Below the pieces are notes generated by a model, which saw only the letters and a program-made list of their open reading frames with translations, did not search any database and had not been told where the DNA came from. Both the position numbers and the translations under genes were made by a program. This document shows, piece by piece, positions 16,555 through 47,850 of a stretch of DNA of 51,686 nucleotides. Position 1 is the stretch's first letter; the number at the start of each line of letters is the position of its first letter. Source of the stretch: Clostridia bacterium (GTDB lineage Bacteria > Bacillota > Clostridia > Oscillospirales > CAG-272). The stretch spans positions 1 through 51,686 of the forward strand of contig JAFWAA010000031.1 in NCBI GenBank assembly GCA_017507905.1, read 5' to 3'.

Positions 16555-16603
16555 CCGAAGCGCACAAAAATTTACAATTTATCAACTAAAATATCACGAT
16601 GTG

Positions 16604-16612
16604 TGCTATAAT
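16604..16612 (+). promoter_or_regulatory. Extended -10 promoter of recombinase gene
   Basis: TGCTATAAT, no good -35. Confidence 0.55.
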
Positions 16613-16684
16613 AAAAGGAGGAAAGGCGCAAAACGAGCCGTTTTTTTGCCGCACCGCATCTTTTTTCGGAAAGGAGGAATACGC

Positions 16685-17692
16685 ATGGGAAAGCTGATCT
16701 CGATTCGGGAGTTCTCTCCCCTCATTCAGGAATTCGCCGCCTATAAATCCTCCATTCAGGGCTGCTCGCAAAAAACGGTGGAGGAATATCTGCTCGATCT
16801 GCGCACCTTCTTCCGCTATCTCGTGGCGCGGGAAAAGGATATCGATCCGCACTCCGCGGAGTTTTCTACCCTTGATATCAGCTCTATCGGTCTGCGCGAG
16901 CTGGAAAAGATCCACGCCGAGGATCTCTACGATTTTCTGCTTTACGTCAATCACACGCGCGAAAACCAATGGGCGGCGCGCTCGCGCAAGCTCTCGGCCA
17001 TTCGTTCGCTTTACAAATACCTGGTCAACAAAAAGCACTATCTGGAGTACAACCCCACCACCGACATTGATTCCCCCAAGCCCGCAAAGGCTCTGCCCAA
17101 GGTGCTGACGCTGGACGAGGCCGAGCGCCTGCTGGACGCCGTGGACAAGGATCGCAATTCCCCCACGCGCGTTCGCGATTACGCGATCCTCACGCTCTTT
17201 CTCAACTGCGGAATGCGTGTTTCCGAGCTTGTTGGCATTGATCTGCGCGATCTTGATTCGGATTTTCAGTCGGTGCGCGTTACGGGAAAAGGAAACAAGG
17301 AGCGCATCATCTATCTTAACCAGGCCTGCCAGACCGCGCTTTGCGATTACGCGATCCAGAGGCTGAGCCAGAAATACGCCAAAGTGCATGACCCTGCCCT
17401 CTTTTTAAGCCGCCTGGAAAAGCGCATCAGCGTCAAGACCGTGCAAGCCATGGTCTACAAGTATCTGCGCGCCGCGGGACTCGGCTCCAAGGGATACTCG
17501 GTACATAAGCTCCGCCACACCGCCGCCACGCTGATGTATCAATCCGGGCAGGTGGACGTGCGCGTGCTGAAGGAGATCCTGGGCCACGAGCAGCTCAACA
17601 CCACGCAGATCTATACGCACGTCAGCAACACGGACATCGAACGCGCTATGCAAAAGAATCCCCTCGCAACAAAGAGGAGATCGAAGAAATAA
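16685..17692 (+). CDS. Tyrosine recombinase, XerC/XerD family
   Basis: Complete R-K-H-R-H-Y set (GMRVSEL, GKGNKER, HKLRH, LGHEQL, TTQIY) and an N-terminal SAM-like domain. Start MGKLIS after AAAGGAGG. Confidence 0.92.
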   Translation: MGKLISIREFSPLIQEFAAYKSSIQGCSQKTVEEYLLDLRTFFRYLVAREKDIDPHSAEFSTLDISSIGLRELEKIHAEDLYDFLLYVNHTRENQWAARSRKLSAIRSLYKYLVNKKHYLEYNPTTDIDSPKPAKALPKVLTLDEAERLLDAVDKDRNSPTRVRDYAILTLFLNCGMRVSELVGIDLRDLDSDFQSVRVTGKGNKERIIYLNQACQTALCDYAIQRLSQKYAKVHDPALFLSRLEKRISVKTVQAMVYKYLRAAGLGSKGYSVHKLRHTAATLMYQSGQVDVRVLKEILGHEQLNTTQIYTHVSNTDIERAMQKNPLATKRRSKK

Positions 17693-17729
17693 AGAACGCA
17701 CCCCCGATCGCCAAGGGCGAATTTCACTG

Positions 17730-17763
17730 AAAAAAGCACGTCTGCATCGCAGACGTGCTTTTT
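17730..17763. terminator. Bidirectional terminator after recombinase
   Basis: A6-GCACGTCTGC-ATC-GCAGACGTGC-T5. Confidence 0.9.
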
Positions 17764-17802
17764 GTTGGCCGCGCAGATCTTAAAGTCAAACACCGCCATC
17801 GT

Positions 17803-17881
17803 GGATACAAGGGCGGCCCGTCGCCCTTGATGATATACGCCTCGCTTCGCGCGGCGATGATATGCCAAGCCTGCGGCTTGG
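17803..17881. repeat. Second spacer/hairpin array (ATGATAT spacers, three hairpins)
   Basis: CAAGGGCG/CGCCCTTG; GATGATATAC; CGC-TTC-GCG hairpin; GATGATATG; CCAAGCC-TGC-GGCTTGG. Confidence 0.75.
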
Positions 17882-17931
17882 ATAAAAAAAACGCTGCAGA
17901 AAAGTACCCTTTTCTGCAGCGTTTTTTTTAT
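17882..17931. terminator. Perfect 23-bp inverted repeat terminator (probable original ssrA terminator)
   Basis: ATAAAAAAAACGCTGCAGAAAAG-TACC-CTTTTCTGCAGCGTTTTTTTTAT. Confidence 0.88.
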
Positions 17932-17961
17932 GAGTAATTGGTGAATAGGATACAAAATCCT

Positions 17962-18035
17962 AATGGGTTCATTTTGCAAAATGGGTTCACTTTTTGTAGA
18001 AAATGGGTTCACTTTTTTTGCAAAAAATGGGTTCA
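17962..18035 (+). repeat. Four direct repeats AATGGGTTCA
   Basis: Exact 10-mers at 17962, 17980, 18002 and 18026. Confidence 0.9.
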
Positions 18036-18055
18036 AATTTAACGATTGCCAAGCA

Positions 18056-18796
18056 TTAGTCTTCGTTGTTTTTTGTTATCATTTTCCAAGTCAAAGAACG
18101 TGCGCGGAAATATATATATTCCTCCGTTAATTCTTCTACACTCTCTATGCAGTCGTCAACCCAATAAACAAATCCATCGTGGAACAAAATGTTCGAATCC
18201 ATAATATCGGGCATAGTGTTGTCGTCATAATTGAAGTGTATTAAAACATCCTTTTTAAATTCTAATATAATATCGCATTCCCAACATCCAGTAAATAATA
18301 CACGAACGCAGCTTGAATCATTATAGTTTTCTTTTAATTCATAACTAATGTTTTTTATTCTAGCATCATGAAATCCCCAAGCGGCACTCAATAAATTATC
18401 TGCATCTTTGAGGTTTTTAACTCGTTTCCATTCGCCTGTATCAATGTTTTTGTTTTGCTCTTCTGCAATTTTGATGTATTTTTCATCAACAGGTTTCCCG
18501 TCTTTGATTTGCTTTATTAAGTCACAATTATCCAAAAGCCAAGAATATCCGAAGCAGTCTTTATAAGTTGTTACCATAGATAGTTTAATTTCTTTCTTTT
18601 CGACCATATCTGCAATATCAGTATCTATTATAAAGACCTTTCTTTTAAGAGAAGGCTTCGTATTATATACATTCAGTAATTCAAATTGTTTATTTTCAGT
18701 ATCAAAAACGATTACACACTCATACCATCCGGGATTAAATTTTGCAAATATATGTGAATAGTATTCTCTATTATCAGATACAATTTTTGCAAGCAT
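18056..18796 (-). CDS. AT-rich hypothetical protein (horizontally acquired)
   Basis: 246-aa ORF with AGGAGGTG RBS and its own promoter. Codon usage differs from the host. Contains an FHDA motif. Confidence 0.85.
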   Translation of the reverse strand: MLAKIVSDNREYYSHIFAKFNPGWYECVIVFDTENKQFELLNVYNTKPSLKRKVFIIDTDIADMVEKKEIKLSMVTTYKDCFGYSWLLDNCDLIKQIKDGKPVDEKYIKIAEEQNKNIDTGEWKRVKNLKDADNLLSAAWGFHDARIKNISYELKENYNDSSCVRVLFTGCWECDIILEFKKDVLIHFNYDDNTMPDIMDSNILFHDGFVYWVDDCIESVEELTEEYIYFRARSLTWKMITKNNED

Positions 18797-18824
18797 AAGG
18801 CACCTCCTATAATAAGTTGGTTAT

Positions 18825-18853
18825 AGTATATCATAAAATCATCAATTATGCAA
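18825..18853 (-). promoter_or_regulatory. sigma-A promoter of islet gene
   Basis: TTGCAT-17bp-TATACT with extended TG. Confidence 0.75.
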
Positions 18854-18902
18854 TGACTATTGCAGGTGTATTTTTTTGAATCGCAGTTTTAATTAAGGAT
18901 CT

Positions 18903-18996
18903 ATTTTAACGATTACTCCCACAAATTTAACGAATACACACAATTTTAACGAAACACCATAAAATTAACGAATACCTACAATTTTAACGCAAGCAA
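18903..18996 (+). repeat. Five direct repeats with TTAACG core, period 21/19/19/19 bp
   Basis: Units such as ACAAATTTAACGAATACAC, ACAATTTTAACGAAACACC, ATAAAATTAACGAATACCT, ACAATTTTAACGCAAGCAA. Confidence 0.88.
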
Positions 18997-19154
18997 AAGG
19001 AGACCATCGACCGAAGGAGCAAATAATCTCGGAAGATAGGCTTTCTTTATCGAAAACTGTGATTTTTATGCGTCAAAAGGGCAAAAATACCCCTAAAAAG
19101 CAATAAAAACGCAGATTAGGCACAAATAATTGTATCCTATTCTGCGTTCTTATT

Positions 19155-19547
19155 TGGTGGAGATGAGGAGAATCGAACTCCTGTCCGAAAACCCCTTGAT
19201 AAAACTTTCTTCGTGGGCAGTCTGTTGTTTAGAATTCCCTCGCGAGGACGCGAACAGACACGCTTCCTCTTGCGGTAGCCCTTTTTTGCTTGATCGGTTC
19301 AAGAGCGAACGGCCGATGCAAGTTCACCGCTCAAATGACGCTCAGTCCAAGGCCGCGGTACTCCTTGGAGGAACGGGTGACCCGCAGGTCACGGCACTGC
19401 CGGTTTTACGTCAAACGACGTAAAACTTAGGCAGCCATAGCAACAGTATTGTTGTCGTTTATTGTTTAATGTTAGGCCTTTATCGAGATTGCCCGGCTCG
19501 CCACGCTTATCTTATCGCAGAATCCCCGTCGAAACCATTGCACCCCC
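19155..19547 (-). ncRNA. ssrA: tmRNA
   Basis: 5' GGGGGUGCAAUGGUUUCGAC; 3' GGAGUUCGAUUCUCCUCAUCUCCACCA; G3-U70 wobble; tag ORF (A)DNNTVAMAA-stop at 19456-19427. Directly downstream of smpB. Confidence 0.97.
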
Positions 19548-19569
19548 ATAGTTGTGGGTACGCGGTATT

Positions 19570-19598
19570 ATTATAGCCCTTTTTGTCCGACTTGTCAA
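19570..19598 (-). promoter_or_regulatory. Consensus sigma-A promoter of ssrA
   Basis: Perfect TTGACA-17bp-TATAAT. Confidence 0.92.
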
Positions 19599-19606
19599 GT
19601 CCTTTT

Positions 19607-20083
19607 TCAGCTCTCGTAGGAGCGATCCTTCATGTGTCGGTCAATATCGCGGTTTGCCTGCCGTTCGGCATCGGCATCGCGCTTATCGTAGAGCTTCTTG
19701 CCTCGGCAAAGCCCAAGCTCGACCTTGACGTAGCCCGAAAAATACATGGAGAGCGGAACGAGCGTATACCCCTTCTGCTGGACCAGGCCCTGCAGACGCA
19801 TGATCTCGCGCTTGTGCATGAGCAGCTTTTTATCGCGCATGGGATCGCGGTTGAAGATGTTGCCGTGATCGTAAGGGCTGATGTGCAGTCCTACCGCAAA
19901 AAGCTCGCCCTTCTCAAAGGAGCAGTAGGAATCCTTGAGGTTTGCCCCTCCCTGCCGCAGGCTCTTGACCTCCGTGCCGTGCAGGGCGATGCCTGCCTCG
20001 TATTTTTCTTCTACGAAATAGTCGTGCCACGCCTTTCGGTTTTGCACGATGCTTCTTGTTTTTTCCTGTTTTTTCTCTGCCAT
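19607..20083 (-). CDS. smpB: SsrA-binding protein
   Basis: NRKAWHDY, EAGIALHGTEVKSLR, RDKKLLMHKREI, GKKLYDKR. Confidence 0.98.
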   Translation of the reverse strand: MAEKKQEKTRSIVQNRKAWHDYFVEEKYEAGIALHGTEVKSLRQGGANLKDSYCSFEKGELFAVGLHISPYDHGNIFNRDPMRDKKLLMHKREIMRLQGLVQQKGYTLVPLSMYFSGYVKVELGLCRGKKLYDKRDADAERQANRDIDRHMKDRSYES

Positions 20084-40061: not shown

Positions 40062-41882
40062 TTACTGCTTGGAAATAGCCTTGAACTTACAAGTGGGCAG
40101 GCAAGCACCGCACTTCACGCACTTCTGCGGATCGATCGAGAAGGATGCCAGCTTGTGACCGGGAGCCACGTAGTCGGTTCTCGTGATGGCAGATGCGGGG
40201 CACTGTCTTGCGCACATGCCGCAGCCAATGCACTTGTCCGCGTCGATGACGAACTGAAGCAGGCTCTTGCAAACGCCGGCAGGACACTTCTTGTCCACGA
40301 TGTGTGCGATATACTCCTCACGGAAGTAACGGAGCGTCGAGAGAACGGGGTTGGGCGCAGTCTGGCCAAGGCCGCAGAGAGATGCGGACTTGATGTAGTT
40401 GGAAAGCTCCTCCAGACGGTCCAGATCCTCAAGCTCACCCTTACCAGCAATGATCTTGTCCAGGATCTCAAGCAGACGCTTGGTACCCACGCGGCAGGGC
40501 GTGCACTTTCCGCAGGACTCGTCTACGGTGAAGTCCAGGAAGAAGCGGGCAATATCAACCATGCAGTTGTCCTCGTCCATAACGATCAGACCGCCCGAGC
40601 CCATCATAGAGCCAATCTCGAGCAGGTTATCGTAGTCGATCGGAGTATCGATCAGATGTGCGGGAATGCATCCGCCGGAGGGTCCGCCGGTCTGTGCAGC
40701 CTTGAACTTCTTGCCGTTGGGGATACCGCCACCGATCTCCTCGATGATGTGACGGAGCGTCGTTCCCATAGGAACCTCAACAAGGCCGGTGTTCTTGATC
40801 TTTCCGCCCAGAGCGAAGACCTTGGTTCCCTTGGACTTCTCGGTTCCCATGGAGGAGAACCAATCGGGACCCTTGAGAATGATCTGGGGAATGTTGGCGT
40901 AGGTCTCAACGTTGTTCAGAACGGTGGGACGGTCGAACAGACCCTTGACTGCGGGGAACGGAGGACGGGGACGGGGCTCGCCGCGCTTACCCTCGATGGA
41001 GGTCATCAGAGCGGTCTCCTCGCCGCAGACGAATGCGCCTGCACCGAGACGGATATCCAGGTTGAAGCTGAAATCAGAGCCGAAGATGTTGTTGCCGAGC
41101 AGGCCGTATTCCTTGGCCTGGTCGATCGCCTTCTGCAGACGCTGAACGGCGATGGGATACTCAGCACGAACGTAAACGTAGCCCTGGTCTGCGCCGATCG
41201 CATAGCCGGCGATTGCCATAGCCTCGATCAGTGCGTGGGGGTCGCCCTCAAGGACGGAACGGTCCATGAATGCACCCGGGTCACCCTCGTCGGCGTTGCA
41301 GCAGACGTACTTCTGTACGTTTCCGCGGTTGCCGGAAGCGAACTTCCACTTCATACCGGTCGGGAAGCCTGCGCCTCCGCGTCCGCGAAGTCCGGAAGCG
41401 AGAATGGTGGAGATAACGTCATCGGGAGTCATCTCGTTGACGACCTTGCCCAGAGCGGCATAGCCGTCCATAGCGATGTATTCCTCGATGTTCTCGGGGT
41501 CGATCACGCCGCAGTTACGCAGAGCAACGCGGTGCTGAGACTTGTAGAAGGTGGTGTCGTTCAGGGAAGCGTGGGTTGCATCCTTGATGGGCTCGCTGGT
41601 CTCGTTGTAGATCAGTCTCTCAACGGGACGGCCCTTGAGCAGGTGCTCGTTGACGATCTCGGCAACGTCATCTACCGTAACGTTGGAGTAGAAGGTACCG
41701 TCGGGATAAACGATAACGACGGGGCCCAGAGCGCAAAGGCCGAAGCAACCGGTCTGCACGACGCTGATCTCCTCAGCCAGACCTGCCTTTTCGAGCTCCG
41801 CGCGGAAAGCGTCCTGAATTCTCGGGCTTCCGGAAGAAGTACATCCCGTACCGCCACAACATAATACATGTGCACGAATCAT
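40062..41882 (-). CDS. NADH/FMN-binding diaphorase subunit (HydB/HndC, NuoF-like)
   Basis: GLRGRGGAGFP, NADEGDPGAFMD, GAGAFVCGEETAL, ESCGKCTPCRVG; C-terminal 2x4Fe-4S. Confidence 0.95.
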   Translation of the reverse strand: MIRAHVLCCGGTGCTSSGSPRIQDAFRAELEKAGLAEEISVVQTGCFGLCALGPVVIVYPDGTFYSNVTVDDVAEIVNEHLLKGRPVERLIYNETSEPIKDATHASLNDTTFYKSQHRVALRNCGVIDPENIEEYIAMDGYAALGKVVNEMTPDDVISTILASGLRGRGGAGFPTGMKWKFASGNRGNVQKYVCCNADEGDPGAFMDRSVLEGDPHALIEAMAIAGYAIGADQGYVYVRAEYPIAVQRLQKAIDQAKEYGLLGNNIFGSDFSFNLDIRLGAGAFVCGEETALMTSIEGKRGEPRPRPPFPAVKGLFDRPTVLNNVETYANIPQIILKGPDWFSSMGTEKSKGTKVFALGGKIKNTGLVEVPMGTTLRHIIEEIGGGIPNGKKFKAAQTGGPSGGCIPAHLIDTPIDYDNLLEIGSMMGSGGLIVMDEDNCMVDIARFFLDFTVDESCGKCTPCRVGTKRLLEILDKIIAGKGELEDLDRLEELSNYIKSASLCGLGQTAPNPVLSTLRYFREEYIAHIVDKKCPAGVCKSLLQFVIDADKCIGCGMCARQCPASAITRTDYVAPGHKLASFSIDPQKCVKCGACLPTCKFKAISKQ

Positions 41883-41900
41883 ATTGCTGTTCCCTCCTTA

Positions 41901-42266
41901 TTATGCGTTTGCGGCGGTGTATTCGGTAACGATCTTTCCGCCCTTGACGTGCTCCTTGAGCACGCGCTCTGCCTTCTCGGCAGTCATGTTGATGTAAGTC
42001 ACCTTATCCTGACCCTTGCAGAGGATCTCGACCACGGGCTCGCGCTCGCAGCCTCCGATGCATCCGGACTGGAGGACGACTGCCTTGCCGTGCAGGCCTT
42101 CCTTGTCAATGCCCTCAACGAAGGCGTGAAGAACGGAGCGTGCGCCTGCTGCGATGCCGCAGGTACCCATTCCGACCACGATGCGAATGCTATTGCCGCT
42201 CTCGCGAAGGACGATCTGATCCTTCACTCTTTCGCGAATCGCAGCAAGTTCTGCCAAAGATTTCAT
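41901..42266 (-). CDS. Thioredoxin-like [2Fe-2S] subunit (HydD/HndB)
   Basis: VGMGTCGIAAGA, SGCIGGCEREP. Confidence 0.9.
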   Translation of the reverse strand: MKSLAELAAIRERVKDQIVLRESGNSIRIVVGMGTCGIAAGARSVLHAFVEGIDKEGLHGKAVVLQSGCIGGCEREPVVEILCKGQDKVTYINMTAEKAERVLKEHVKGGKIVTEYTAANA

Positions 42267-42308
42267 AATGTTCAGTTCCTTTCCTTCCTAAAAGATATAT
42301 GTTTTTCT

Positions 42309-42854
42309 TTATTGATACTGTTCCGTCAGGTATTCCCCGATCCACCGAAGGACCTCCGGCGTGCTCAGAGGAACGCCCGTTCCCAGGATCGCGCGCAGTT
42401 CCCTTGTGTCAAGGGTGACCGTGCGTGTTGCGAACACATGGGAAAAATGCAGCTCGACCTCGGGGCTGCCCTGCAGAAGTGCAAGAAGCGTTGCCACCGT
42501 GTCTCCCACGGGGGGACAGTCGATATGCGTGCTGATCAGCTCTGCCGTAAGGGTCGTGCCGTGGGAAGTAGGATAACGCTCCCGATCCCGTGAGGCAAGA
42601 TGAAGCGATCCGCCCGTCCGCTCGGCCGTCCGCAAAAGCAGGTAAAGACCAAGTCCCGCGCCCTCCGTCTCCTTTGTGGAAAAGAATGGCTCAGTGGCGT
42701 GTGCGAGAATGCTTTGAGGCATTCCCTCACCGTCGTCCTCTACCGTCATGCGGATGTGCCCTTCCCGCTCGTCCAGCGCGATGCGAAGATGCTTCGCCCC
42801 GGCGCGCAGAGAATTTTGGGCAACGTCGAGAAGATGTAGGGAGAGATCCTTCAT
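42309..42854 (-). CDS. Stand-alone GHKL (HATPase_c) ATP-binding protein
   Basis: MKDLSLHLLDVAQNS (N box), DDGEGM, FFSTK, GLGL. No HisKA or sensor domain. Confidence 0.85.
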   Translation of the reverse strand: MKDLSLHLLDVAQNSLRAGAKHLRIALDEREGHIRMTVEDDGEGMPQSILAHATEPFFSTKETEGAGLGLYLLLRTAERTGGSLHLASRDRERYPTSHGTTLTAELISTHIDCPPVGDTVATLLALLQGSPEVELHFSHVFATRTVTLDTRELRAILGTGVPLSTPEVLRWIGEYLTEQYQ

Positions 42855-42879
42855 GTCCACCCGTTGGCAGACGTCCTCT

Positions 42880-43374
42880 TTACTGATACTTTGCAAGAAT
42901 GGTATCGACGTCGTCTACGGTGATCTTACCGTAAACCTCTCCGTTGACGGTGAGAACGGGAGCAAGTCCGCAAGCACCGATGCAGCGGGTCGCCTCGATG
43001 GAATACTTGCCATCGGGAGAGGTGCTGCCAACGGGAACGTTAAGCTTCTGAGAAATCGCCTCAATGATATCACCCGAGCCCTTGACGTAGCAAGCGGTTC
43101 CCAGGCAAACGGCGATCGCATACTGACCGTCGGGGTTAAGCTTGAACTGTGCGTAGAAGGAAATGATACCGAAGATCTCCTCCATGGAGACGCCCGTCTT
43201 CTCGGCAATGATGGTCTGAACCTCGATGGGCAGATATCCGTAGATCTCCTGCGCCTCCTGAAGGATCGGCATCATAGCACCGCGCTGACCGGCATGCTTC
43301 TCGATCACGGCAAGCAGCTTTTCTTCCTGCTCCTTGGTGCCCTGAAAAGCAACCGTAGTCAATTTCTTTTTCAT
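42880..43374 (-). CDS. [2Fe-2S] subunit (HydC/HndA, NuoE-like)
   Basis: ILQEAQEIYGYLP, FYAQF, VCLGTACYVKG, RCIGACGLAP. Confidence 0.95.
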   Translation of the reverse strand: MKKKLTTVAFQGTKEQEEKLLAVIEKHAGQRGAMMPILQEAQEIYGYLPIEVQTIIAEKTGVSMEEIFGIISFYAQFKLNPDGQYAIAVCLGTACYVKGSGDIIEAISQKLNVPVGSTSPDGKYSIEATRCIGACGLAPVLTVNGEVYGKITVDDVDTILAKYQ

Positions 43375-43418
43375 AAGTCTACAACCTCCTGAAAATTTTT
43401 ATCGCTTCCGAGAAAAGT

Positions 43419-43436
43419 TTGTCTGATTTTTCACAA
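43419..43436 (-). promoter_or_regulatory. Putative Rex operator
   Basis: TTGTGAA-AAAT-CAGACAA against consensus TTGTGAA-N4-TTCACAA. Lies downstream of a TATAAT at 43463-43468. Confidence 0.55.
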
Positions 43437-43797
43437 ACGTTCACGGACACACTGATGGCTCTATTATACTACATATTAAAGAAAAAATCTATACCTTTTT
43501 CAAAATTTTTTCAAGAACTTTTTGGTTTTTTTGAAAAAAATGCGTTTTTCGGGCAAAATAACGAACAAGGAGGGCTCGTCATGCCCTTTTTCGCGCAACA
43601 GCCGCAGAAAGCGCGACCTTTTTTCACCCTTTTTGCTTTGCCCTTCGCCTTTTTTTCGCCGTTGCCTCTTATCCTTTTTCCATTTTTTTACATTTTGCAG
43701 AGAAAGTGACAAAATCCACCCCTGCCTCGGCGGTATAATAAGAGAAAAAATGCGTCTGCCGAAAGGCGGAGCTTTGGAAAGGATGATCAAATCAACT

Positions 43798-44349
43798 ATG
43801 CTTTGCGAACAATGTAAAAAACGAACGGCAACGGTATTCTACAACGAGAAGCTGAACGGCCGCTCCCGCTCGCTCTCCCTCTGTGGGGAATGCGCCTCCA
43901 AGCTGCGCGAGAGCGGAGAAATCCGTGACGTCACCTCCATGATCGGCAGCTTTGCCGACCCCTTCTCCGCCCTGCAGGACGAGCGTTTCGGGGATTTCTT
44001 CGGCCTTCGTATCCTTCGGGCGAAGGAGGAAAAGATCCTCTGCCCCTGTTGCGGACGGGCTCTTGCGGCGATCCTGAACGACGGAAAGGTGGGCTGTGCG
44101 GAATGCTATTCCGCCTTCTCGGGGGAGCTTTCCCCTCTGCTCCGATCCCTGCACGGAGGAGCGACGCACCGCGGAAGGATCCCTTCGAGATTGCTTGCCA
44201 GAAGGGCGCGCATCGAGCAGCTTTCGCGTTTGCGCGAGGAGCTGCAAAAGGCGATCACGGAGGAAAAATTTGAGGAAGCGGCACGTCTGCGCGACGAGAT
44301 CCGCGTTCTGGAGGAGCAAAAGGAGGGCAACGGCAATGGCTTGGTATAA
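43798..44349 (+). CDS. mcsA: McsA (four CxxC motifs plus UVR domain)
   Basis: MLCEQC...CGEC...CPCC...GCAECY...HRGRIP...[14 protein letters not shown]. Confidence 0.92.
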   Translation: MLCEQCKKRTATVFYNEKLNGRSRSLSLCGECASKLRESGEIRDVTSMIGSFADPFSALQDERFGDFFGLRILRAKEEKILCPCCGRALAAILNDGKVGCAECYSAFSGELSPLLRSLHGGATHRGRIPSRLLARRARIEQLSRLREELQKAITEEKFEEAARLRDEIRVLEEQKEGNGNGLV

Positions 44350-45349
44350 CGATCGCGGAAAGGCTTCCGAATCCGTGCTCTGCACGAAGGTACAGCTCAG
44401 GCGTAACCTTGGCGCCTATCCCTTCCCCGTTTCACTTGAGGCGGCCTCGGCAAACGAGATCCTGCAAAAGCTTTCGCCTCCTCTTGAAGCGCTCGGCTTC
44501 CGCAAGATCAATTTTTCGGATATTTCGGCGATCATGGCGACCTCCTACGTGGAAAAGCACTACGCCAGCCCCGCCTTTGCCTCGGTTGGCGGACCGCACG
44601 TCCTTCTTCTGCAGGAAAAGCCGGACATTGCCGTGACGCTTTGCGGCGAGGATCATCTGCGCATCTGCTGTATCCTCCCGGGGCTTGACCCGAAGGAGGC
44701 CTTTGCCCACGCCTCGGAGATCGAGCGCGTGCTGGACGGAGAAAACGAGCTTGCCTTTGATCCCGATCTCGGTTATCTGACGCAATCCCCGGCTGATCTC
44801 GGGACGGGGCTTTCGGTGTCGGTGATGCTTTTTCTTCCTGCACTTGCCGAAAGCCTTTGCATCGGCTCGCTCGCCTCGCATCTTGGAAAGCTCGGGCTCA
44901 GCCTGCGCGGCGGCTTTGGCGAGGGGGTCAGCACCTCCTGCGGTCTCTTTGAGCTGAGCAACCGCGTAACGCTCGGCAAGGACGAAAACGAGATCCTCTC
45001 CCTTGTGGAGGAGGTCACTCTGCAAATCCTTGAGCGCGAGGAGGAGGCGAGACGTGCCATCCGCAAGGAGCCGCTTGACCGTCTGACCGACCGCATCCGC
45101 CGCAGTGAGGCCATTCTCAAGTCTGCCCTGCTGCTCTCCTCGGAGGAATTTCTCCGTCTGTTTGCCGACGTCCGTCTCGGCATCGCGCTCGGCATTGTTC
45201 GCGGGATCACCTACGAGCAGCTCTCAACGCTTTTGGTTGAGGGAATGCCCGCAACCCTGACGCTCTCCGCGGATACGACTCCGCGCAGTGAACACGCACG
45301 CGACGCACTTCGCGCAAAGCGCGTACAGGCTCTGCTCCATGAAGCATGA
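44336..45349 (+). CDS. mcsB: McsB homologue with degenerate kinase site
   Basis: Phosphagen-kinase fold motifs (EDHLRI, GYLT..P..LGTG, RG..GEG, DVRLG), located between mcsA and clpC. Confidence 0.88.
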   Translation: MAWYNDRGKASESVLCTKVQLRRNLGAYPFPVSLEAASANEILQKLSPPLEALGFRKINFSDISAIMATSYVEKHYASPAFASVGGPHVLLLQEKPDIAVTLCGEDHLRICCILPGLDPKEAFAHASEIERVLDGENELAFDPDLGYLTQSPADLGTGLSVSVMLFLPALAESLCIGSLASHLGKLGLSLRGGFGEGVSTSCGLFELSNRVTLGKDENEILSLVEEVTLQILEREEEARRAIRKEPLDRLTDRIRRSEAILKSALLLSSEEFLRLFADVRLGIALGIVRGITYEQLSTLLVEGMPATLTLSADTTPRSEHARDALRAKRVQALLHEA

Positions 45350-45384
45350 TCCGCACAGCCGCCAAAGGAAAGGAACGCACCCAT

Positions 45385-47850
45385 ATGATCAACCGATTCA
45401 CGCAAAAAGCGCAAGGCGCTTTGCAATTCACCCTTCAGGCAGCCGCCGAAATGGGGCATACCTATATCGGCTCCGAGCATCTTCTGCTTGGCCTTCTCCA
45501 CGAGCCCTCCTCCATCGCCGCGCGCTGCCTTTCGGAGCGAGGCGTGGATCGGGAGACCGTGCGTGCCGCCGTCGGCAATCTTGCAGGCGTTGGCAATCGC
45601 ACGTCCCTCTCGGCATCCGACATGACCCCACGCACGCGAAGCATTATCGAAGCATCTCTGGCCGAGGCACAACGCCTCGGCCAGAGCGTCATCGGCACGG
45701 AGCATCTTCTTCTTGCCCTGCTTGAGGAACGGGACTGCGTGGCCGTTCGCGTGCTGGAAAGCCTCGGCATCCAGATCCACGAGCTTCGAAACGACGTTCT
45801 GCACGTCCTCGGCGCCCCCTCACCGCGGGAATTGCGCGACGCGGAAAAGGCCTCCGCCAAGAGCGCGGAGCAAGGCTGTCTTGCAGGCACGCAGGTGCTG
45901 AAGCATCACGGACGTGACCTGACGCTGCTTGCCCGTCAAGGAAAGCTCGATCCCATCATCGGTCGCGAAAAGGAGACCGAGCGCGTGATCCAGATCCTTT
46001 CCCGAAGGACGAAAAGCAACCCCTGTCTGATCGGTGAGCCGGGGGTGGGAAAGACGGCGGTGGCCGAGGGGCTTGCGCGCAGGATCGCCGAGGGGAGCGT
46101 GCCCGAAAATCTGGCGGGCAAGGCGATCGTCACGCTGGACGTTCCCTCCATGATCGCAGGAGCAAAATACCGCGGCGAATTTGAGGACCGCCTCAAGAAC
46201 GTCATGGCCGAGGTGCGCAAGGATACGCGGATCATTCTCTTTATCGACGAGATCCACACCATCATCGGTGCGGGGGCGGCAGAGGGGGCGGTGGACGCCG
46301 CCAACATCATCAAGCCTGCCCTGGCACGGGGCGAGCTACAGGTGATCGGAGCCACCACCATCGCGGAATATCGCAAGCACATCGAAAAGGACGCGGCTCT
46401 TGAGCGTCGCTTTCAATCGGTTCTGGTCGGAGAGCCCACCGAGGAGGAGACGGTGCGCATTCTCCGCGGCCTGCGCGAGCGATACGAGGAGCATCACCGT
46501 CTCTCCATCAGCGACAAGGCCATTGAGACCGCCGTTCGCCTTTCCATGCGCTATATCCCCGACCGTTTTCTGCCCGACAAGGCGATCGATCTGATCGACG
46601 AGGCCGCCTCACGCGTCCGCATCGGTGCGCTCACCTCCCCTGCGGACCTTCGGGAAAAGGAGAACGAGCTTTCGCGCCTCGGCAAGGAAAAGGAGTACGC
46701 CATTCTCGCCCAGAATTTTGAGGAGGCCGCGCGTCTGCGAGACCGCGAGCAGGCTTTGCGCACCGCATACGACGCCGAGAAAAGCGATTGGGAGCATAAA
46801 CAGGAAAAGCACGGCCTTGCGGTGACCGAGCACGACGTTGCCGACATTCTCACCCAATGGACGGGCATTCCCGTAGGGCGCCTTCTCGAAAGCGAGGGGG
46901 AGCGTCTTTTGCATCTGGAGGAGGCTCTGCACAAGCGCGTGATCGGGCAGCGGGAGGCCGTCTCCACGGTTGCGCGCGCCATTCGGCGCGGACGCATGGG
47001 GCTTCAGGATGCGCGCCGTCCGATCGGATCCTTCCTCTTTCTCGGCAGCACGGGTGTGGGAAAGACCGAGCTGGCAAAGGCGTTGGCCGAGGTGCTCTTT
47101 GGCAGCGAGGAGGCTATGATCCGTCTGGATATGTCGGAATATATGGAAAAGCACAGCGTTTCCCGTCTGATCGGCTCCCCTCCCGGCTACGTTGGCTACG
47201 AGGAGGGCGGACAGTTGACCGACCGCATTCGTCGCACGCCCTACGCCGTTCTTCTCCTGGATGAGATCGAAAAGGCACACCCCGACGTATTCCATCTGCT
47301 CTTGCAGGTATTGGAGGACGGTGTGCTGACCGATTCACAGGGACGGCGCGCGGATTTTCGCCATACGGTCATCATTTTGACCTCCAATGCAGGGGCAACC
47401 GCGCAAAACGGCGCCTCTCGGCTTCTCGGCTTTACCGCCGACGAGGAAAAGGCGGAAAATGCACAAAAGGAGAAAATGCTTACCGCTCTGCGTGGGATCT
47501 TCCGCCCCGAATTTCTCAACCGTATCGACGAGATCATCGTCTTTCACCGTCTGGAGCGTGAGGAGATCGGGCAGATCGCCGATCTGATGCTTCGGGAGCT
47601 GCAGGGCCGCATCGCCAAGCTTGGAATGCGCATTCACTTTGACGACTCGGTGCGGGAGCTGCTGATCCGCGAGGGAACGGATCCGCTCTACGGCGCCCGT
47701 CCGCTCCGCCGCGCCACGGTGCGCCTGGTGGAGGATGCCCTCGCGACCGAGATGCTTGAGGGTAAGCTTCGGGAGGGAGATCGCATTCTGGCCTGCGCGG
47801 AAGGAGAAAAGGTCGTCTTCAAGCCGGAAAAGGAGGAGGATGGCGCCTGA
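45385..47850 (+). CDS. clpC: ATP-dependent Clp protease ATPase ClpC
   Basis: Duplicated Clp N-repeats (GSEHLL, GTEHLL), two AAA+ modules, a UVR middle domain and an LGF loop. Confidence 0.95.

Follow-up and report, generated by a model that had tools for sequence, protein, structure and literature searches.

Introduction

In published work, McsB figures as the writer of the phospho-arginine (pArg) degradation tag in Gram-positive bacteria. Its cysteine C167 is catalytic in Bacillus subtilis, where the C167A variant is inactive, lacks the pArg-dependent oligomers and is found as a dimer only (PMC11046695), and the equivalent residue of the Staphylococcus aureus enzyme is also essential for catalysis (PMC12467219). 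The kinase-inactive allele used in B. subtilis, McsB C167S, activates the ClpC ATPase to ~50% of the wild-type level, binds the ClpC N-terminal domain, co-localises with aggregates and allows disaggregation in vitro and partly in vivo (bioRxiv 10.1101/2022.09.15.508104). No publication on a natural McsB pseudokinase was found in full-text searches. Here we analysed a stretch of 51,686 nucleotides (the window; contig JAFWAA010000031.1 of assembly GCA_017507905.1) from an uncultured gut-type Clostridia bacterium of the Oscillospirales, which carries a full-length mcsB homologue between mcsA and clpC. The product of this gene, hereafter the window McsB, has lost several residues of the active site and is likely to be a pseudokinase that is retained as a partner of McsA and ClpC and acts independently of phosphorylation.

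Active-site residues are replaced in the window McsB

The window McsB was aligned with McsB of Geobacillus stearothermophilus and B. subtilis, its 120 nearest homologues and 29 members of its genus. Residues are numbered as in B. subtilis McsB from a HMMER alignment to Protein Data Bank sequences, anchored on C167, R190, R194 and E212, which fall at their literature positions. Seven changes are derived: R29K, R31Q, E120G, C167S, T169A, N170D and R176S. The catalytic cysteine has become Ser151, and three of the five phosphate-binding arginines are replaced, R29, R31, R125, R176 and R207 corresponding to K18, Q20, R109, S160 and R191. In arginine kinase, the Arg124/126/229/280 cluster steers ATP into the active site (PMC12467219). 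The catalytic glutamates E121 and E212 are kept as E105 and E196, together with D122, H123, R125, R207, the DVRLG motif and R337/D338/R341 (as R322/D323/R326). The full canonical set, RR..EEDH.R..CPTN..R..R..E, is found in 118 of the 120 nearest homologues and in 27 of the 29 McsBs of the genus; the substitution pattern is far beyond chance.

A first-pass annotation, made from the DNA sequence alone with B. subtilis McsB as the reference, had proposed several of these changes. It read SSRIRLARN as CTKVQLRRN, and the aligned segment VLCTKVQLRRN indeed gives R29K and R31Q. Its replacement of the catalytic Cys and of a further Arg by Ser is confirmed by the comparison of TQSPADLGTGLS with TSCPTNVGTGLR (C167S, R176S), which also yields two derived changes that it had not called, T169A and N170D. 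Its reading of NEEDH as CGEDH is exact as a string, but the N-to-C step is not derived, since the canonical form in this genus is CEEDH; E120G alone is derived there, and E121 is kept. The formal alignment that it had called for supports the loss of the catalytic Cys and of three of the five phosphate-binding Arg residues.

These replacements sit in an otherwise complete McsB. The ATP:guanido phosphotransferase catalytic domain (PF00217) matches with E 2.7e-38 and 131.9 bits against a cut-off of 22.4, and the match to the McsB structures solved for G. stearothermophilus and B. subtilis extends over the whole length (residues 2-331 aligned with G. stearothermophilus McsB 6fh1, E 8e-54). The C-terminal dimerisation domain is present with ADVRLG and R322-D323-x-x-R326, as the first-pass annotation had noted for DVRLG and RDxxR, and all close homologues carry a precomputed PF27454 (McsB_C) match. 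An AlphaFold2 model (predicted local distance difference test, pLDDT, 75; predicted template-modelling score, pTM, 0.80) superposes over its full length on 6fh1 and 6tv6 in Foldseek with template-modelling (TM) scores of 0.85-0.86 (6fh1 0.86). All five NCBIfam McsB equivalog models match, each far under its cut-off, with best scores of 264.1 bits versus 385 (NF002194) and 236.4 versus 500 (NF053707), which is why NCBI names the orthologues 'hypothetical protein'. Public names are inconsistent (P0272, P0273; NCBI MBQ2249042.1, MBQ1262439.1 and others), JGI giving 'protein arginine kinase' for what NCBI leaves as hypothetical; canonical relatives are annotated 'ATP--guanido phosphotransferase'.

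The window McsB belongs to a small monophyletic degenerate clade

In a maximum-likelihood (ML) tree the degenerate clade has three members: the genome of the window (G000; 1.61 Mb, 92% complete) with its 99% variants, a distinct species with 91% amino acid identity (G017), and a metagenomic lineage with 69% (P0003/L032). It is monophyletic with a support of 100, and its sister group (support 97) consists of the canonical McsBs of G035 and P0004-6. The stem of the degenerate clade, at 0.35 substitutions per site, is about three times longer than the sister stem of 0.11. Canonical and dead McsBs of sister species in the genus are 60% identical (G035 type).

E120G, C167S, T169A, N170D and R176S are common to all three lineages. 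R29K and R31Q occur in G000 and G017 only, and R125Q (R125E in variants) and D338Q in the P0003 lineage only, one variant of which carries an independent R31Q. Relaxed constraint on a dead active site predicts just such a pattern, with a single inactivation in the ancestor and separate erosion of the remaining phosphate-binding arginines thereafter. A dead McsB is ruled out as an order-wide trait, as all 13 order-level relatives with McsB have the canonical form with ctsR upstream. Elsewhere, locus L023 (G019:C42:156449-157453) contains a McsB match with one in-frame TAG, for which sequencing error, pseudogenisation or recoding may account.

The window mcsB is under purifying selection

The reading frame runs for 337 codons without a stop, and the mcsA stop codon at 44347-44349 overlaps the mcsB start at 44336, in agreement with the first-pass annotation, which had described the open reading frame (ORF) as full length and coupled to mcsA. 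The ratio of nonsynonymous to synonymous substitution rates (dN/dS, omega), for which it had also asked, was estimated pairwise only, by the Nei-Gojobori method (NG86) and by ML. Between G000 and G017, mcsB has a dN/dS of 0.06-0.08 at dS ~0.65 (0.07-0.08 in the kinase domain and 0.04-0.09 in the dimerisation domain); for its neighbours the values are 0.04 (mcsA) and 0.10-0.12 (first 484 codons of clpC). At similar dS, the ratio for pairs of canonical McsBs from the genus is 0.02-0.05 in lineages that carry ctsR and 0.05-0.08 in a clade without it, and the dead McsB is therefore at most mildly relaxed. Between G000 and P0003 omega is 0.13-0.23, a value near saturation (dS 1.1-1.7) and indicative only.

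Across 30 canonical genus-level sequences, 158 alignment columns show a conservation of 96% or more; all three degenerate lineages differ at 24 of them, 23 of which fall within the kinase domain (Fisher p = 0.049). The clade-wide changes that lie beyond the catalytic motifs are mostly conservative (D/E, I/L, M/L, Y/F). All 20 natural variants checked in two 90% clusters (14 of the 26-member cluster, all six of the other) keep the dead motifs, with the segment S151-S160 unchanged, and are intact except for one N-terminally shorter entry of 319 residues. The window mcsB is thus a gene under purifying selection and not a pseudogene.

No ctsR or ywlE was found in the genome

In all 13 order-level relatives and in 19 of the 27 canonical loci of the genus (with one further partial match), ctsR lies directly 5' of mcsA. 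No CtsR was found in the locus or in G000, either as a PF05848 match or by tblastn. No new regulator of the ctsR-less operon emerged: a scan for a CtsR box before mcsA stayed at chance level, the controlling inverted repeat of chaperone expression (CIRCE) gave no match there, and promoter-like sites were weak ones only.

Equally, the search for a YwlE phosphatase, another check put forward in the first-pass annotation, returned no low-molecular-weight protein tyrosine phosphatase (LMW-PTP) in G000 by PF01451 or tblastn. Relatives carry an LMW-PTP with the P-loop CTGNTCRS, which we take to be the YwlE signature, encoded between a dCMP-deaminase-like gene and rimI. The same neighbours (dCMP-deaminase-like, rimI/tsaD) are contiguous in G000 at C9:11734-12560, and the slot between them is held by an unrelated ORF of ~255 amino acids with a lipoprotein-type signal (MNNRQHLLRLSSLLLLLLLLLTSCASV...); the lack of ywlE is therefore genuine and does not reflect missing assembly. 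G000 has a single PF00217 gene, and no second McsB copy was detected by Pfam search or tblastn within its 92% completeness. ClpP is present in two copies.

Canonical relatives show that these losses can precede that of the kinase. The canonical sister G035 has an operon without ctsR, and no ywlE was found in its 71% complete assembly. A clade of six species (G029, G006, G003, G004, G009 and G014; loci L008, L009, L012, L013, L018 and L025) also has the operon without ctsR and keeps every catalytic residue of McsB; no YwlE-type phosphatase was found in it, and G004 has only a weak LMW-PTP match of 136 amino acids. In G015 (L027) the operon likewise lacks ctsR, McsB is canonical and the only LMW-PTP is of the phosphotyrosine type (P-loop CHGNICRS). 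The proposal that loss of ctsR or ywlE is always accompanied by kinase death is ruled out by the six-species clade and G015; such loss does not force the loss of the kinase. The ctsR-less canonical clade may use a kinase without its eraser and main target, or may represent an intermediate stage. The genus thus holds canonical McsB, canonical McsB without ctsR and ywlE, and dead McsB side by side as a stepwise series.

Degenerate McsBs recur in the wider family

A HMMER search of 1.84 billion representative sequences returned 2,687 relatives at E <=1e-10, from which the 150 nearest 50%-identity representatives were sampled, 145 of them with at least 300 residues. With degenerate defined as at least three catalytic substitutions, 25 of these 145 full-length representatives nearest to the window McsB are degenerate. 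In a tree built with the catalytic columns masked they are scattered among canonical McsBs, which points to many independent losses, including a second one in the genus-level clade of the window McsB (P0122).

The same replacements recur among degenerate McsBs, with C167S seen nine times, N170D 13 times, E120G 11 times and T169A nine times. In P0122-P0271 the convergence extends to a 'SPAD' loop (C167S, T169A and N170D) and 'GEDH' (E120G). Several of these changes require a single nucleotide, and the convergence may in part reflect mutational bias or a constraint that preserves the fold. The recurrent N170D might place a carboxylate at the position of the gamma-phosphate and so lock an 'ATP-bound-like' shape that is recognised by ClpC or McsA.

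Contigs were fetched for three independently degenerate McsBs (P0157, P0134 and P0126), all of which lie in ctsR-less mcsA-mcsB-clpC modules. Together with the window, all four degenerate McsBs whose upstream region is visible are without ctsR. Tentatively, then, the McsA-McsB-ClpC module may have converged on a kinase-dead McsB repeatedly and not just once, a generalisation that we regard as possible, if somewhat short of probable. If true, the core ancestral job of McsB would be that of a ClpC co-factor, with arginine phosphorylation an add-on that is shed once CtsR and YwlE are gone.

A pseudokinase partner of McsA and ClpC is the favoured explanation

In the explanation that we favour, the window McsB would keep the McsB fold and dimerisation domain and would have lost its arginine-kinase activity. 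Together with McsA it would bind, regulate or activate the ClpC unfoldase, the function for which selection would retain it, and misfolded proteins would be brought to ClpC/ClpP without a phospho-arginine tag. We infer the lack of kinase activity from the replaced residues, and the role as a ClpC adaptor from the operon coupling and, by analogy, from the behaviour of B. subtilis C167S. The central proposal of the first-pass annotation, a catalytically dead but retained McsB, is in this sense supported by the alignment, the dN/dS values, the genome context and the published C167S allele.

Its origin can be envisaged in three steps. The regulatory arm would have been dismantled first, by loss of ctsR from the operon and loss of YwlE, a state common to the canonical sister G035. 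The kinase centre would then have been inactivated in one ancestor (E120G, C167S, T169A, N170D, R176S), after which unneeded phosphate-binding arginines would have eroded separately, as R29K/R31Q in G000 and G017 and as R125Q/E with one R31Q in the P0003 lineage. That regulator and phosphatase loss came first is indicated by canonical G035, the six-species clade and G015, in which the operon lacks ctsR and no YwlE-type phosphatase was found. This loss seems to set the stage for kinase death; a kinase without its phosphatase may be costly.

Several observations weigh against this explanation. E121, E212, H123, R125 and R207 are kept, R29K is conservative and an arginine has been gained at position 33 (A33R), so that weak or altered phosphotransfer could conceivably persist. 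Cys-to-Ser mutants of phosphagen kinases such as arginine and creatine kinase can keep slight activity. At 92% completeness the genome may hold an unrecovered gene elsewhere, yet the syntenic sites of ywlE and ctsR are empty. MecA is encoded in G000 (C32:14803-15417), which removes the need for the window McsB as the only ClpC adaptor and rules out the idea that it is retained in that capacity. Finally, McsB has stayed canonical in the ctsR-less, ywlE-less clade of this genus.

Alternative explanations

The strongest competitor, which we nevertheless consider unlikely, is that the window McsB is a weak or re-tuned arginine kinase in which Ser151 and K18 take over from Cys and Arg, and the new Arg22 (A33R) makes up for the lost arginines, so that low-level pArg tagging goes on and is perhaps tolerable without a phosphatase. 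The conserved catalytic residues and the conservative R29K just mentioned would suit such an enzyme, as would the intact pArg receptor triad and the retained pArg pockets of ClpC described below. A33R lies on the same strand as R29 and R31 and occurs only in the lineage that lost both; it is the sole candidate for compensation, and none convincing was found. Of the 120 canonical representatives, 118 have Ala and one has Gly at position 33, which is variable in degenerate ones; this small residue, nearly invariant in canonical McsBs, argues that an Arg there obstructs the site. Moreover, C167S is the standard kinase-inactive allele of B. subtilis, and the phosphate pocket is altered non-conservatively by R176S, R31Q and N170D. 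Other arginines (R125Q/E, R31Q) and D338 have been lost in the sister lineage, which speaks for relaxed constraint and not for re-tuning.

A non-activating role is less probable again. Here the window McsB would be kept as a brake or anti-adaptor on ClpC or McsA, or as a stand-alone holdase for aggregates. The conventional adaptor MecA is present, the surface of the kinase domain is still under selection (omega 0.07-0.08) without catalysis, and McsB of B. subtilis is itself modulated by ClpC and McsA, which implies two-way contacts (PMC11046695). All this would be compatible with such a role, but operon coupling with clpC is conserved in at least four independent degenerate lineages, and B. 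subtilis C167S activates ClpC and does not inhibit it.

It is very improbable that the window McsB serves as a pArg reader, whose receptor would recognise pArg made by an unrelated kinase and hand the modified proteins to ClpC. The published receptor-site mutant is R337A/D338A (PMC8370763). The corresponding R322/D323/R326 triad is intact in G000, in G017 and in 13 of the 14 listed cluster variants (the search pattern was unmatched in the fourteenth), and the first-pass annotation had spoken of a retained pArg-sensing tail. Arginine phosphorylation without McsB has reportedly been found in mycobacteria. No other phosphagen-kinase homologue and no arginine phosphatase was found in the genome, the P0003 lineage carries D338Q, and among the 145 full-length representatives the R-D-R triad is lost along with catalysis, being kept in 105 of 120 canonical but 10 of 25 degenerate McsBs (Fisher p = 1.6e-6). 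The motif claimed by the annotation is present, but its retention is more readily explained as recent or structural than by pArg sensing; the intact pocket is probably vestigial or structural. R341 is invariant wherever the position aligns (147 of the 150 representatives), which suggests a structural role for this residue. The equivalents of ClpC E32 and E106 are also kept (GSEH, GTEH); they say little about pArg, since the resting state of ClpC is anchored by the same pockets as well (PMC12583610).

Lastly, that the gene is decaying, a young pseudogene as yet without stops, is barely credible: the long stem branch, the sub-cut-off NCBIfam scores with NCBI's 'hypothetical protein' label and an omega at the upper end of the canonical range might suggest it, but the low omega at dS ~0.65 already contradicts it, the frame is intact down to 69% identity and in the variants checked bar the shorter entry, the overlap with mcsA is conserved, and the clade-wide changes are concentrated in the kinase domain and mostly conservative outside its motifs.

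Layout of the locus and neighbouring genes

Table 1 Features of the mcsA-mcsB-clpC locus in the window (positions of the forward strand).
Feature	Position	Strand	Description
Intergenic region 5' of mcsA	43375..43797	.	Place of ctsR in relatives; without ctsR, significant CtsR box or CIRCE
mcsA	43798..44349	+	Two CxxC...CxxC zinc fingers and C-terminal UVR motif
mcsB (window McsB)	44336..45349	+	337-aa full-length McsB homologue with degenerate active site
K18-V-Q20 replacing R29-I-R31	44387..44395	+	Two ATP-phosphate-binding Arg; change common to G017 only, P0003 lineage has R-V-R
G104-E105-D106-H107 of NEEDH	44645..44656	+	E120G with catalytic E121 kept; in all three degenerate lineages
S151-P-A153-D154-L-G-T-G-L-S160 replacing C167-P-T-N-V-G-T-G-L-R176	44786..44815	+	Catalytic cysteine loop and phosphate-binding Arg
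R322-D323-A-L-R326	45299..45313	+	pArg receptor R337/D338/R341, intact
clpC	45385..47850	+	821 aa; Clp_N repeats, two AAA modules, UVR middle domain (Pfam)

The order mcsA-mcsB-clpC is the same in G017 and L032 (Table 1). The UVR motif of mcsA is matched by PF02151 (E 7e-9), and the NCBIfam McsA model NF053706 scores 123 bits against a cut-off of 210, its match beginning at residue 6 of the longer ORF. The start of mcsA is likely the second ATG (MLCEQC); the first ATG (43783) is out of frame in G017 through a 1-nt indel. The clpC gene begins 35 nt beyond the end of mcsB with a conserved start, MINRFTQ, aligned with G017 and L032; conservation is poor in the gap at 45350-45384, where G017 has an indel.

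Divergent from mcsA, and sitting where relatives have ctsR, is a minus-strand set at 40062-43374 with NuoF/HydB-like (40062-41882), small ferredoxin-like (41901-42266), histidine-kinase-like ATPase (42309-42896) and NuoE-like (42880-43374) genes. By eye it has the typical composition of an electron-bifurcating [FeFe]-hydrogenase cluster. Farther away, a transfer-messenger RNA gene (ssrA; 19155-19547, minus strand, tag DNNTVAMAA) adjoins smpB (19607-20083, minus strand), near a tyrosine-recombinase/integrase-like ORF (16601-17692) and a low-GC ORF of 246 amino acids (18056-18796). The GC content drops to 0.41 in the 16601-20083 region versus ~0.57 elsewhere in the window, and this region has the appearance of a small integrative element that entered at ssrA.

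Comparison with known systems

The sole McsB of this genome, apparently kinase-dead and under selection without the eraser YwlE and the best-known substrate CtsR, would mean that the adaptor or scaffold function of McsB can stand alone, and argues that whole lineages may run ClpC quality control without pArg. The key substitution, C167S, is a laboratory allele of known behaviour, and active-looking and dead sister versions occur in one genus. Since putatively dead orthologues are variously labelled as kinases or as hypothetical proteins, the presence of a mcsB homologue is not evidence of arginine phosphorylation in gut Clostridia.

The window McsB shares with McsB of B. subtilis, G. stearothermophilus and S. 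aureus (6fh1-3, 6tv6, 8wtb/c, 8gqd) the two-domain architecture (TM 0.86) at 32-34% identity. It also shares with canonical McsBs the mcsA-mcsB-clpC order with overlapping genes and the residues E121, E212, R125, R207 and R337/D338/R341, but differs from them in its seven active-site changes, its sub-cut-off family scores and the lack of ctsR and YwlE in its genome. In the alignment, this genus shows no conservation of R190/R194, the autophosphorylation sites that serve the Bacillus octamer.

The engineered B. subtilis variants C167S and C167A are altered at the same catalytic cysteine, and C167S is the very substitution of the window McsB; C167A, though restricted to dimers, still assembles with McsA (PMC11046695). 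Unlike these variants, the change described here is natural and clade-fixed, and it comes with three Arg losses in a sole McsB without CtsR or YwlE. MecA-type adaptors resemble the proposed function in that non-enzymatic binding to ClpC enables substrate delivery and activation, but their fold is unrelated, and since MecA is also encoded in G000 both would act in parallel. As in other pseudoenzymes, such as bacterial Ser/Thr pseudokinases and the prozymes of trypanosomatids, catalytic residues are lost under purifying selection and the original partners are kept; unlike other pseudokinases, the window McsB belongs to the phosphagen (guanidino) kinase superfamily and not to the eukaryotic protein kinase (ePK) fold.

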